IMG/VR virus record: IMGVR_UViG_2703718797_000012 | DNA from: a virus | Taxonomy: Duplodnaviria > Heunggongvirae > Uroviricota > Caudoviricetes | Reading direction: 5' to 3' (one strand) | DNA: 40,979 bases | Shown: positions 33,901 to 36,900 of the stretch, piece by piece | How positions within the stretch are numbered: position 1 is the first letter of the stretch | Layout: each line of letters begins with the position of its first letter | Made by a program: the position numbers

Positions 33901-36900
33901 TCGTCTCGATAGCCTGCAATCGGTGATGGCTTTGAGAGAGCATCCTGAACGATTTGTAATAACTCAGAGTTCATTGACCTTCCGTTAGCCTCTGCTCTTA
34001 ATTTCAATTTTTCTCTTACTTCCAAAGGCATACGGAAGTTAAAGTGCGGATCGTCTCTAGCCATGCCATCACCCCAAGTTAGTGTATTGACATGATAGAA
34101 GCACTCTACTATATTCTCAATAGGTCCACGGTGGACCTATATTGTGAGGTAAATATGAAAGGAATGAGCAAAATGCCGCAGTTCAATTTGCGGTGGCCTA
34201 AAGAAGTATTGGATTTGGTGCGTAAGGTGGCGGAAGAGAACGGGCGATCTGTTAACTCTGAGATTTACAAGCGAGTAATGGACAGCCTGAAGAGAGAGGG
34301 GATTACGGTATGAAGGTGTCATTGCTTGATCGTTCTTTACAATTTTTGTCTGGCGCAATCATTGTAGTTTGCTTGCTCGTGATTTTTACATCGTTAATCA
34401 ATATGTATCAATCAGGGGAACGATTGACAAAGACGATAGAGGAAAAAAAATCAGTCTCAAATTACGAAGTATCACATGCACATAACGATTTAGTAGAAAG
34501 CCTTGACCGTATTAACAAGAGGCTTGACGAGACAAATATGCTACTTAAGCAAATTCAAAATGAAGTGGAAAAACGTTGAAGCCCCAACTGCGGGAACAGT
34601 CAGGGCTTCGGTTGTCGGTAAATTCGTGGAGAAAAACCAACATGAATAGTATAGCAATTTTAGAAGCAGTGAACACCTCTTACGTGCCTTTCAATGGTCA
34701 GCAGATTTTAACCGCTGTGGCTGCCGGAGTGACTTATGTAGCGATGCGTCAAATTGTGGAAAACATTGGTATCGACTGGACTGGTCAATCTGTTAAGTTG
34801 CGTAAAATGAAGGACAAATTCAACTGTAGAGATATCTCTATGGTTGCCGCTGATGGCAAGTTACGTAAGCTTTTATGCATCCCGCTGAAGAAGTTAAATG
34901 GATGGCTGTTCAGCATCAACCCTGAGAAAGTTCGAGCTGACATCCGCGATAAACTGATTCAGTACCAGGAGGAATGCTTTAGCGTGCTGCATGACTACTG
35001 GACTAAAGGCCATGTAGTTAATCCACGCAAAGCTAAAAAGGCGTTGCCTGGTAAAATCACCACTGAACAGCAGGAAGCCATTAAACAACTCGTCATGAGT
35101 CGCGGTCAGTCTCTGCCAAAAGAAAAACAGGCGAAGGCAATGATTACCATGTGGTCGTCACTGAAATCTCATTTTGGGTGTTCATACAAAGAAATCAGCG
35201 AGGAGCAGTTTACCGAAGCTCTGTCACTTGCAGCTCGCGTTCCGCTTGAAGGTGAGTTCATCGGCAAACAAGAGAAGAAAACCAACGAGCTTTCTGCAAA
35301 AGAAGCAAACAGCCTTGTATGGTTATGGGATTATGCCAACCGCTCACAGGCATTATTCCGCGAACTGTATCCGGCGCTAAAACAAATTCAATCGAACTAT
35401 TCCGGCAGATGCTACGACTACGGTCATGAGTTCTCGTATGTTATCGGAATGTCGAGGGACGTTTTAATCAATCACACACGAGATGTTGATATCAATGAGC
35501 CAGACGGACCAACGAATCTTTCCGCATGGATGAGACTTAAGAATAAAGAATTACCTCCTTCAGTACATAACTACTGACAGATAACCAACGTAACGACCCA
35601 GCTTCGGCTGGGTTTTTTTATGCCCAAAATTCACCGCAGCAACTAAGCGGCGATGGCCTTGATGGATAGCACTACACAAAAAGTGTAGTGCAAAAAGCAA
35701 ACAAATACTCACCGTAGCTACGCTGCGGCGATTCCTTGTATCTGGAGCAAATTAAATGACAGACATTACAGCCAATGTTGTGGTAAGCATGCCTTCACAA
35801 CTCTTCACTATGGCTCGTTCTTTTAAAGCCGTAGCCAATGGCAAAATTTATATCGGTAAAATTGACACTGACCCTGTAAATCCTGAAAACCAGATTCAGG
35901 TTTATGTGGAGAACGAAGACGGCTCTCACGCTCCTGTTTCGCAACCAATAATCATTAACGCTGCTGGATATCCGGTATATAACGGACAGATTGCCAAATT
36001 CGTTACCGTGCAAGGCCATTCTATGGCTGTTTATGATGCGTATGGTGCACAGCAGTTCTATTTTCCCAATGTGCTGAAGTATGACCCTGATCAACTACGG
36101 CAGCAATTAGAAGACCCAGATGGAGCGAATAAATACCCAAAACTTCAGATAGCAAGATGGAGAGACAGTTATGATGTAAGAGGTTGGGGGGCTATTGGTG
36201 ATGGTGTTCATGATGATACATCAGCTCTATCAGAATTACTTTCTGTTGCAACAGGTGGTGAAAAGATAGATGGGCGAGGGCTTACTTTTAAAGTATCAAC
36301 TCTTCCAGATGTCAGTCGATTTAAAAATGCTCGTTTTTTATTTGAGAGAATACCGGGTCAGCCTCTTTTTTATGCTTCTGAAGATTTTATCCAGGGAGAG
36401 TTATTTAAAATTACAGATACACCGTGGTACAACGCCTGGACGCAGGATAAAACGTTTGTATATGACAATGTCATCTATGCGCCTTTTATGGCTGGAGACC
36501 GCCATGGTGTAAATAACCTCCATGTTGCATGGGTTCGCTCAGGAGATGACGGGAAGACCTGGACAACGCCGGAATGGCTTACAGATTTACATGAAAACTA
36601 TCCCACAGTTAACTATCACTGCATGAGTATGGGGGTTGTCAGAAATCGCCTTTTTGCTGTAATTGAGACGCGGACCGTGAGCGGAAATAAACTGCAGGTT
36701 GCAGAGTTGTGGGATCGCCCAATGAGTCGCAGCCTTCGCGTTTATGGTGGTATAACGAAAGCAGCAAATCAGCAAGTCGCTTATATTCGCATTACTGATC
36801 ACGGATTATTTGCTGGTGATTTTGTCAACTTCTCAAACTCTGGTGTTACAGGTGTTACCGGGAATATGACGGTGACTACTGTTATTGATAAAAATACTTT

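Follow-up and report, generated by a model that had tools for sequence, protein, structure and literature searches.

The immI region of phage P22 is a textbook regulatory circuit in which the Mnt repressor represses the Pant promoter in lysogens and the Arc repressor shuts Pant down. In P22, as in phage epsilon34, arc is followed directly by the antirepressor gene ant, with a 68-nucleotide (nt) spacer and nothing else between them. Here we analyze the corresponding region of IMG/VR virus record IMGVR_UViG_2703718797_000012 (Caudoviricetes), a DNA stretch of 40,979 nt hereafter called the window, in which a 270-nt cistron encoding an open reading frame (ORF) of 89 amino acids (aa), ORF89, fills the arc-ant interval up to the terminator of the antisense RNA sar. 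An initial annotation had described an AT-rich ORF overlapping the arc stop codon at this site, and its position (34310-34579, + strand), the ATGA overlap, and the GC content of 35.6% all agree with that description.

The surroundings of immI are in rapid flux. The available portions of the 2008 epsilon34 paper describe this region as one in which unrelated small genes are quickly acquired and lost, with ten types in sixteen genomes, and say nothing of a variable gene within the arc-ant operon (PMC2629481). Among the products of the same variable region (the ant moron) is P22 SieA, a small inner-membrane protein; SieA types have three or four transmembrane (TM) helices and a cytoplasmic FxRYPxEAxxFNK motif, and SieA blocks the entry of competing phage DNA (PMC10883804). 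Our literature search turned up no relevant report of a gene located between arc and ant. The flux of the region, and ORF89 as a hypothetical protein and a PHROG member, were already known; a cassette slot inside the arc-ant operon appears to be previously undescribed and is what this study adds to the P22 immI picture.

We conclude that ORF89 is a cassette exchanged by recombination in the arc-X-ant operon of P22-like phages, where X denotes the small gene between arc and the antirepressor gene. This slot is filled in more than 500 of 5,426 complete Escherichia coli genomes by at least five unrelated small genes.

A recurrent cassette slot between arc and ant

Every ORF89-family locus examined (L001, L002, L004, L007-L020, L025-L027, and L034-L038) showed the order arc-X-antirepressor, X and arc overlapping by 4 nt (ATGA or GTGA). 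Identity to the neighbouring genes of the window ranged across these loci from 49 to 100% for arc, from 35 to 100% for mnt, and from 47 to 100% for ant; the tailspikes differed too, and in L037 and L038 the antirepressor was of the Bro-N type, not the P22_AR type. As judged from these comparisons, ORF89 is freely reassorted with mnt, arc, sar/ant, and tailspike alleles.

In the junction alignment (sites in L001-L025), the 32-nt terminator hairpin of sar (GAAGCCCC…GGGCTTC) was almost invariant. To its right, the 5' half of sar, the ant ribosome-binding site, and the ant N-terminus came as three alleles, and ORF89 (at least 98% identity) was joined to all three; to its left, the sequence took at least six forms. 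Because a near-invariant hairpin separates these two kinds of diversity, the sar hairpin is best read as a junction between recombination modules, and we infer that this hairpin, together with the conserved 3' end of arc, provides the handles for homologous recombination. Apart from the 73-aa variant described below, each occupant has an A-rich 3' end, which on the other strand gives the sar U-tail, and then a TGA stop codon that takes in the first two hairpin bases. All but one of the ORF89 variants end at, or 1 nt before, the hairpin foot, the exception being a 73-aa variant that stops 25 nt before the sar 3' end.

The occupants of the slot, with their counts among the 5,426 E. coli genomes, were as follows.

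67-aa cysteine-rich ORF (CUS-3), L022 6166-6369, 373 genomes
57-aa ORF (APEC O1), L023 1337-1510, 93 genomes
74-aa CxxC…CxxC ORF (ST131-type prophages), L003 3311-3535, 23 genomes
ORF89, the window, 14 genomes
60-aa ORF, L024 1328-1510, Pfam zf-C4_ClpX 37.7 bits (gathering threshold 27), 10 genomes

ORF89, which had been taken for a one-off insertion, is instead a minority occupant of a recurrent slot with at least five alternative cassettes: three of its four slot-mates (373, 93, and 23 genomes) are commoner than ORF89 (14), and the zf-C4_ClpX type (10) is rarer. All have the position, the ATGA overlap on arc, and the A-rich 3' end in common, and all stop at the TGA in the hairpin foot. They differ in that their sequences are unrelated and in that the slot-mates look soluble, whereas ORF89 has a membrane/coiled-coil layout. 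Three of the four other occupants are cysteine-rich and zinc-binding-like, with a CxxC…CxxC arrangement resembling the ClpX zinc finger (one passes zf-C4_ClpX, one matches it weakly, and one shares the layout); the 57-aa APEC O1 occupant carries no cysteine motif. ORF89 is the only membrane-anchored occupant and, as a hypothetical protein, is of modest significance.

The slot had been overlooked in CUS-3 itself. The region at L022 5963-6431 (CP000711), annotated only as 'bsq2 boundary sequence', contains an Arc-family ORF (Pfam, 32.5 bits), the 67-aa occupant overlapping its stop, and a full sar RNA (84.6 bits), and the 67-aa ORF is unannotated ('none') both in the top RefSeq matches and in the CUS-3 record. 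According to the available portions of the 2008 epsilon34 paper, CUS-3 is without arc (PMC2629481).

ClpP-like protease genes adjoin mnt in some of the regions (L004 1960-2493 and L023 292-825; Pfam CLP_protease, 4.3e-12 and 2.2e-11), including that of the ORF89-bearing phage EC.P3, so that a Clp theme in the variable region is possible.

ORF89 as an accessory gene

ORF89 overlaps arc by 4 nt, its start codon (34310-34312) and the arc TGA (34311-34313) being interlocked in the form GTATGA, and a Shine-Dalgarno-like GAGGGG lies 8 nt 5' of the start, within the final arc codons. Its GC content of 35.6% (35.6% at third codon positions as well) compares with 46.9% for the window, 45.7% for arc, and 44.3% for ant. 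An 88-codon open frame arose at this base composition in only 156 of 200,000 shuffles (about 0.0008), and the other five frames of the stretch contain 3-9 stops each.

Seven further ORF89 DNA alleles, drawn from E. coli genomes, IMG/VR, and metagenomes, contained no stops; set against the window allele, their changes add up to 18 synonymous and 11 non-synonymous, where neutrality predicts a ratio of about 1:3.7; pN/pS was 0.31 for the most distant allele. Against the more diverged L007 homologue, dN/dS was 0.50 and the differences by codon position were 27/17/34, the fewest falling at position 2. Within the subfamily of 83-aa homologues, two divergent comparisons gave dN/dS of 0.28-0.33, the third pair being near-identical with ten differences only. 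PGAP annotates ORF89 as hypothetical protein WP_001555392.1, and the protein matches PHROG 27312 (unknown function) over its full length (E = 6.5e-61; all 89 residues aligned to the 89 positions of the profile). These data indicate that ORF89 is under purifying selection and is very probably a real, translated accessory gene.

Predicted architecture of the ORF89 protein

The features recognized within ORF89, all on the + strand, were as follows.

34310..34579, ORF89, predicted bitopic membrane/coiled-coil protein, occupant X of the arc-X-ant slot
34343..34399, predicted TM helix, residues 12-30 (Kyte-Doolittle mean 2.79; invariant alignment columns)
34412..34441, conserved juxtamembrane motif SGERLTKTIE, residues 35-44 (alignment of homologues)
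34443..34450, A8 homopolymer (sequence)
34481..34576, predicted C-terminal coiled coil, residues 58-89, four heptads (heptad register; a/d positions kept in homologues; PDB profile matches)

The initial annotation had predicted one TM helix and a coiled-coil tail, and our analyses bear this out. Residues 12-30 (FLSGAIIVVCLLVIFTSLI) form the top 19-residue Kyte-Doolittle window and the only hydrophobic helix, and the AlphaFold2 model is a single continuous helix over residues 5-88 with a mean confidence (pLDDT) of 82.8. In the C-terminal part, the a and d positions of a 4-3-4-3 heptad register (residues 61-86) are L61, L65, I68, L72, T75, L79, I82, and V86, and they remain hydrophobic in homologues with 44-54% identity. 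ORF89 is probably a membrane-anchored oligomer.

The LSGAIIV stretch of the TM helix is invariant in the five aligned family members, save for S in place of A in the homologue P0013, and S35, G36, R38, L39, I43, and E44 of the juxtamembrane motif are invariant in homologues of 44-91% identity. D7, R8, F26, and T27 are also invariant across the aligned family, and the linker is variable and carries a 7-residue indel. The TM helix and the juxtamembrane motif thus appear more conserved than a simple anchor would need, which points to a specific membrane partner.

The A8 run is interrupted in some alleles (AAAAGAAA in L001 and L004). Three database proteins (P0005, P0007, and P0008) are 60-aa frameshift products that diverge just past A8, end in …EEKNQSQITKYHMHITI, and have no coiled coil; they may be true truncations or homopolymer sequencing errors at A8.

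Distribution of the ORF89 family and comparison with known proteins

Besides the 14 E. coli genomes, ORF89 was found in the deposited records of two phages, Escherichia phage EC.P3 and Salmonella phage S.Kent 1-2-1, on 13 IMG/VR contigs, and on a few metagenome contigs; P22, epsilon34, and a further 54 phage records lacked it. E. coli MS14385 and APEC O2-211 are examples of hosts carrying an ORF89 prophage. The family is very small and confined to P22-like prophages of Escherichia, Salmonella, and Serratia. Its diverged members, in which the frame is kept, comprise P0009, P0011 (from Serratia marcescens), and P0012, all of 83 aa and 44-54% identical to ORF89, and the 73-aa P0013 from Salmonella Kirkee. 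A word-indexed search of 5.8 billion proteins returned close relatives and fragments only, and an exhaustive phmmer search of 1.84 billion representatives returned a single diverged relative, P0009. The variants from Serratia and Salmonella Kirkee came from a profile search, which gave no more distant relatives, the scan of a genome collection with one genome per species gave no confirmed relatives, and the metagenome scan gave only copies with at least 91% identity. The protein P0004 (94 aa, from a Logan contig), in which an unrelated acidic N-terminus is fused to ORF89 residues 29-89, is probably an assembly or rearrangement artefact. The IMG/VR locus L021 was rejected as a relative: its match is confined to the short stretch SEERLTKTIEE within a helicase-like ORF of 563 aa.

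In Pfam, ORF89 gave matches below threshold only, to DUF948 (15.9 bits), DUF1664 (16.5 bits), and DUF4446 (13.3 bits), against gathering thresholds of 37.2, 34.6, and 27.4, respectively. These bacterial families of unknown function share with ORF89 the layout of an N-terminal TM helix followed by a coiled coil, and ORF89 and P0009 align at the same DUF948 positions; the likeness is one of composition and architecture, not demonstrable homology. NCBIfam gave no significant match, and PADLOC gave no family at E <= 0.1 for either ORF89 or P0009. In the PDB profile search, designed coiled coils or helical bundles accounted for four of the 17 matches listed, the best one among them (E >= 0.017), and a BFVD search with the single-helix AlphaFold model of ORF89 gave no match. 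Comparison by hhalign with an FtsB sequence gave a probability of 0.2%.

Two identities were tried and rejected. A SieA-type protein was dismissed on an hhalign probability of 0.6% against P22 SieA, a single hydrophobic helix, and the absence of the FxRYPxEAxxFNK motif. P22 SieA resembles ORF89 as a small inner-membrane protein of the same variable region and offers a functional analogy for the role proposed below; it differs in having 162-164 aa and three TM helices and in being expressed from the prophage, whereas ORF89 has one TM helix and lies, by position, under the Mnt-repressed Pant. An i-spanin (Rz-like) protein has a superficially similar N-terminal TM helix and coiled coil, but no lipobox ORF was found in the other frames of ORF89, and the gene lies in immI, not in a lysis cassette.

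The immI region of the window and transcription of ORF89

The window derives from a CUS-3-like, K1-specific, P22-like phage or prophage. An alignment of its final 13 kb with phage CUS-3 covers 77% of the query at 97%, the endosialidase tailspike included. The features surrounding ORF89 are given below.

33816..34064, - strand, mnt repressor, 82 aa (Pfam Arc 1.1e-27, Repressor_Mnt 5.5e-15; 84% identical to P22 and epsilon34 Mnt)
34087-34115, + strand, Pant, TTGACA-17-TATATT (consensus scan; overlaps Pmnt, the pair spanning 34087-34120)
34120-34092, - strand, Pmnt (consensus scan)
34155..34313, + strand, arc, 52 aa (Pfam Arc 1.8e-27; P22/epsilon34 alignment; RefSeq annotation of the identical gene in L002)
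34574..34641, - strand, sar antisense RNA (Rfam RF00262, 90.1 bits, gathering threshold 43; model positions 1-68 of 68)
34578-34609, - strand, sar terminator hairpin (terminator scan; cross-locus comparison)
34642..35577, + strand, ant antirepressor, 311 aa (Pfam P22_AR_N 2.3e-42, P22_AR_C 1.9e-29)
35595..35614, + strand, intrinsic-terminator-like site, the first on this strand after Pant (terminator scan; same position as the annotated epsilon34 terminator after ant)
from 35756, tailspike gene

All the elements of a P22-type immI region are present, namely Mnt and Arc ribbon-helix-helix repressors, divergent overlapping promoters, sar, and the Ant domains, with mnt, arc, ant, Pant/Pmnt, and sar 83-100% like those of P22 and epsilon34. 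Arc ends in …KREGITV in the window and in …KKEGRIGA in P22, its last five codons having been replaced.

Pant and Pmnt match the promoter consensus at 11 of 12 and 10 of 12 positions, respectively, and are identical in sequence to the P22 promoter region annotated in X01916. The terminator scan gave no + strand terminator between Pant and 35595, and the site at 35595-35614 is likely to be the end of the arc-ORF89-ant transcript. No promoter-like sites were found between Pant and the ORF89 start, the promoter-like matches lay within ORF89 (e.g., 34424-34451), and the total of seven was not in excess of the shuffle expectation of 4.0 ± 1.8. Because Pant/Pmnt are identical to those of P22, no terminator intervenes, and ORF89 overlaps arc by 4 nt, co-transcription from Pant, as envisaged in the initial annotation, is the simplest reading. 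ORF89 has the patchy presence and deviant GC content of a moron; having neither a promoter nor a terminator of its own, it is not a moron in the strict sense.

sar and the control of ant

The ORF89 stop codon (34577-34579) lies within the sar gene, and the final ORF89 codons are the template of the sar U-tail, the terminator scan giving the hairpin followed by AACGTTTTTC, with five U in the window versus three in P22. The 3' boundary of the insertion coincides exactly with the foot of the sar hairpin, and the region from the hairpin to the ant start is essentially identical to that of P22 and epsilon34. Since the P22 arc stop lies 6 nt before the hairpin and the ORF89 stop abuts it, the order of translated cistron, sar target, and ant is preserved, and only the upstream cistron has changed. 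In all six other loci tested (L003, L007, L022, L034, L036, and L037), sar directly follows the slot.

It had been suggested that the insertion might alter the control of ant. With sar intact just downstream of ORF89, this control is probably unchanged: sar is full-length, it is present in the six other loci, and the U-tail tract is kept by every cassette type, which runs counter to the suggestion. We judge it likely that ORF89 is independent of ant control. As it reassorts independently of the ant allele, it is also unlikely to be a dedicated partner of Ant.

Possible role of ORF89 and alternative explanations

Taking these results together, we lean slightly towards the statement as a whole that ORF89 is an accessory membrane-protein cassette standing outside ant control. 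By analogy with P22, it would be transcribed from Pant and translationally coupled to arc; it would stay off in lysogens, where Mnt represses Pant, and be expressed briefly after infection or derepression until Arc closes the promoter. It might also be made from late read-through transcripts heading to the tailspike gene, as late transcripts cross this region to reach that gene according to the available portions of two papers (PMC2629481; PMC8022706). Anchored in the inner membrane and oligomerized through its coiled coil, ORF89 would most likely have a target in the membrane and serve in conflict among phages or with the host, for example by an early block of competitor DNA entry or by neutralizing a membrane-borne exclusion or abortive-infection effector, and would most likely take no part in ant regulation. 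Genes timed by Pant would be made only when the phage enters a cell without its Mnt, which is when phage-phage conflict is decided, and this timing makes the slot proteins reasonable candidates for exclusion, anti-exclusion, or decision-tuning. A specific exclusion or anti-exclusion role of ORF89 is nevertheless a tentative proposal that we regard as rather doubtful. Bolder, and unlikely in our estimate, is the idea that P22-like phages of Enterobacterales have in their three-cistron arc-X-ant operon a hot-swappable effector slot running from the arc 3' end to the sar hairpin, in which ORF89 would represent a new class of Pant-timed membrane effector acting in the first minutes of infection (e.g., as an early superinfection block or as a neutralizer of a resident prophage's membrane-borne exclusion system) and the zinc-ribbon occupants would be its cytoplasmic counterparts.

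Several points weigh against the membrane-effector proposal. The searches of Pfam, NCBIfam, PADLOC, PDB, and BFVD gave nothing significant that would tie ORF89 to a function. The positive-inside count, with two K/R per side within 15 residues, leaves the topology ambiguous, so that the coiled coil could be either cytoplasmic or periplasmic, and, since 60-aa frameshifted variants exist, it may be dispensable in some hosts. If the slot-mates share a role, membrane exclusion is not the obvious common denominator, three of the four being soluble and cysteine-rich. In addition, ORF89 might be linked so strictly to arc because of a functional tie to immI and not merely through the route of recombination.

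An alternative, raised in part by the initial annotation, is that ORF89 is mainly a regulatory modification of immI. By parting arc from ant, or by setting a translated cistron against the sar target, it would alter translational coupling, sar termination, or sar pairing, and hence Ant output. The stop inside sar and the longer U-tail encoded by the last codons fit this idea, the family was never found outside the arc-ant slot among the loci examined, and the TGA in the hairpin foot, shared by the aligned cassettes save the 73-aa variant, suggests a constraint on where upstream translation ends. We nevertheless find it improbable, considering that sar and the ant ribosome-binding region are essentially as in P22 and epsilon34, that P22 works with arc ending 6 nt from the same hairpin, so that the geometry is preserved, that ORF89 pairs with three sar/ant alleles and with a Bro-N antirepressor, and that the 73-aa variant ends 25 nt short of the sar 3' end. 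Purifying selection and TM and juxtamembrane residues invariant at about 45% identity would be unneeded by a mere spacer. These same features speak against the notion that the ORF is spurious and the 270 bp a non-coding AT-rich spacer, which the restriction of homologues to a very narrow group, the lack of domain matches, and the existence of frameshifted copies might have encouraged. The low chance of the open frame, the Shine-Dalgarno-like run at the right spacing, the synonymous excess with dN/dS of 0.3-0.5, the PGAP annotation, and the PHROG membership all argue otherwise, and comparison with relatives contradicts the spacer reading directly: the frame, the start overlap, and the stop position are kept at 44-54% identity in Escherichia, Salmonella, and Serratia prophages. 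A spurious ORF is thus extremely improbable and effectively excluded.

Other explanations concern what the protein might do. It would be surprising, though the architecture allows it, if ORF89 perturbed the membrane as a lysis-timing factor (holin, antiholin, or spanin-like) or as a division inhibitor mimicking bitopic coiled-coil divisome proteins. With fewer than 100 aa and an N-terminal TM helix followed by a leucine-zipper-like helix, it resembles i-spanins, FtsB/FtsL-type proteins, and XhlA/DUF948-like proteins; the sub-threshold matches to DUF1664, DUF948, and DUF4446, of which DUF948 is matched again by P0009, and the location on the path of late transcripts are consistent with this. 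However, the Pfam scores of about 16 bits compare with thresholds of 35-37, the FtsB comparison was negative, and the gene lies outside the lysis cassette, its other frames holding short ORFs without a lipobox and no embedded or adjacent lipoprotein ORF. Quite improbable, too, is a scheme in which the X genes tune host proteolysis during the Pant burst, the zinc-ribbon occupants acting on ClpX-type machinery and ORF89 on a membrane protease (FtsH/HflKC), so that Ant, repressors, or CII-like factors would become more or less stable and the lysis-lysogeny decision would shift accordingly. The zf-C4_ClpX occupant (37.7 bits versus 27), the weaker match of a second occupant to this family, the CxxC…CxxC layout of a third, the ClpP-like genes next to mnt (EC.P3 included), and the identical placement and arc coupling of all occupants lend themselves to it. 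The connection is, however, purely positional: ORF89 has no sequence or structural link to a protease, adaptor, or inhibitor, the 57-aa APEC O1 occupant carries no cysteine motif, and the recombination mechanism alone can yield slot-sharing.

Other features of the window

The initial annotation had compared ORF89 with a 109-aa protein encoded at 32418-32747 (- strand), which we identify as a homologue of hkcB (so named in CUS-3 and HK620; PHROG 5962), with a 51%-identical copy in epsilon34. The likeness holds for the architecture: this gene, too, is AT-rich (37.3% GC) and lies in the same variable region, and in its product a hydrophobic segment at the N-terminus precedes a charged helical region. 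It does not extend to the sequence (BLASTP E = 2.7; PHROG 5962 versus 27312; Kyte-Doolittle mean 1.47 versus 2.79), and the gene belongs to another transcription unit on the opposite strand. Its GTG start lies immediately past the stop of the gene-16-like DNA transfer protein gene, which is on the opposite strand to it.

An ORF of 199 aa (33174-33773, - strand; PHROG 18235, no Pfam family) shares the last 16 nt of its 3' end with a YafO-family toxin gene that lies downstream of it (32770-33189, - strand; Pfam YafO_toxin 1.1e-11). The two look like a toxin-antitoxin-like pair in the variable region and are annotated as hypothetical proteins in CUS-3.

Finally, a neuO-type heptanucleotide repeat (AAGACTC/TCAAGAC) occupies 38858-38936 (gene region 38855-39582), with 11.3 perfect copies directly after the ATG. 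Eleven copies put the acetyltransferase-like frame out of register, the ORF from the ATG ending after 45 aa, and the phase-variable neuO-type gene is therefore predicted to be OFF in the window copy; the CUS-3 repeat is annotated with 19 copies.

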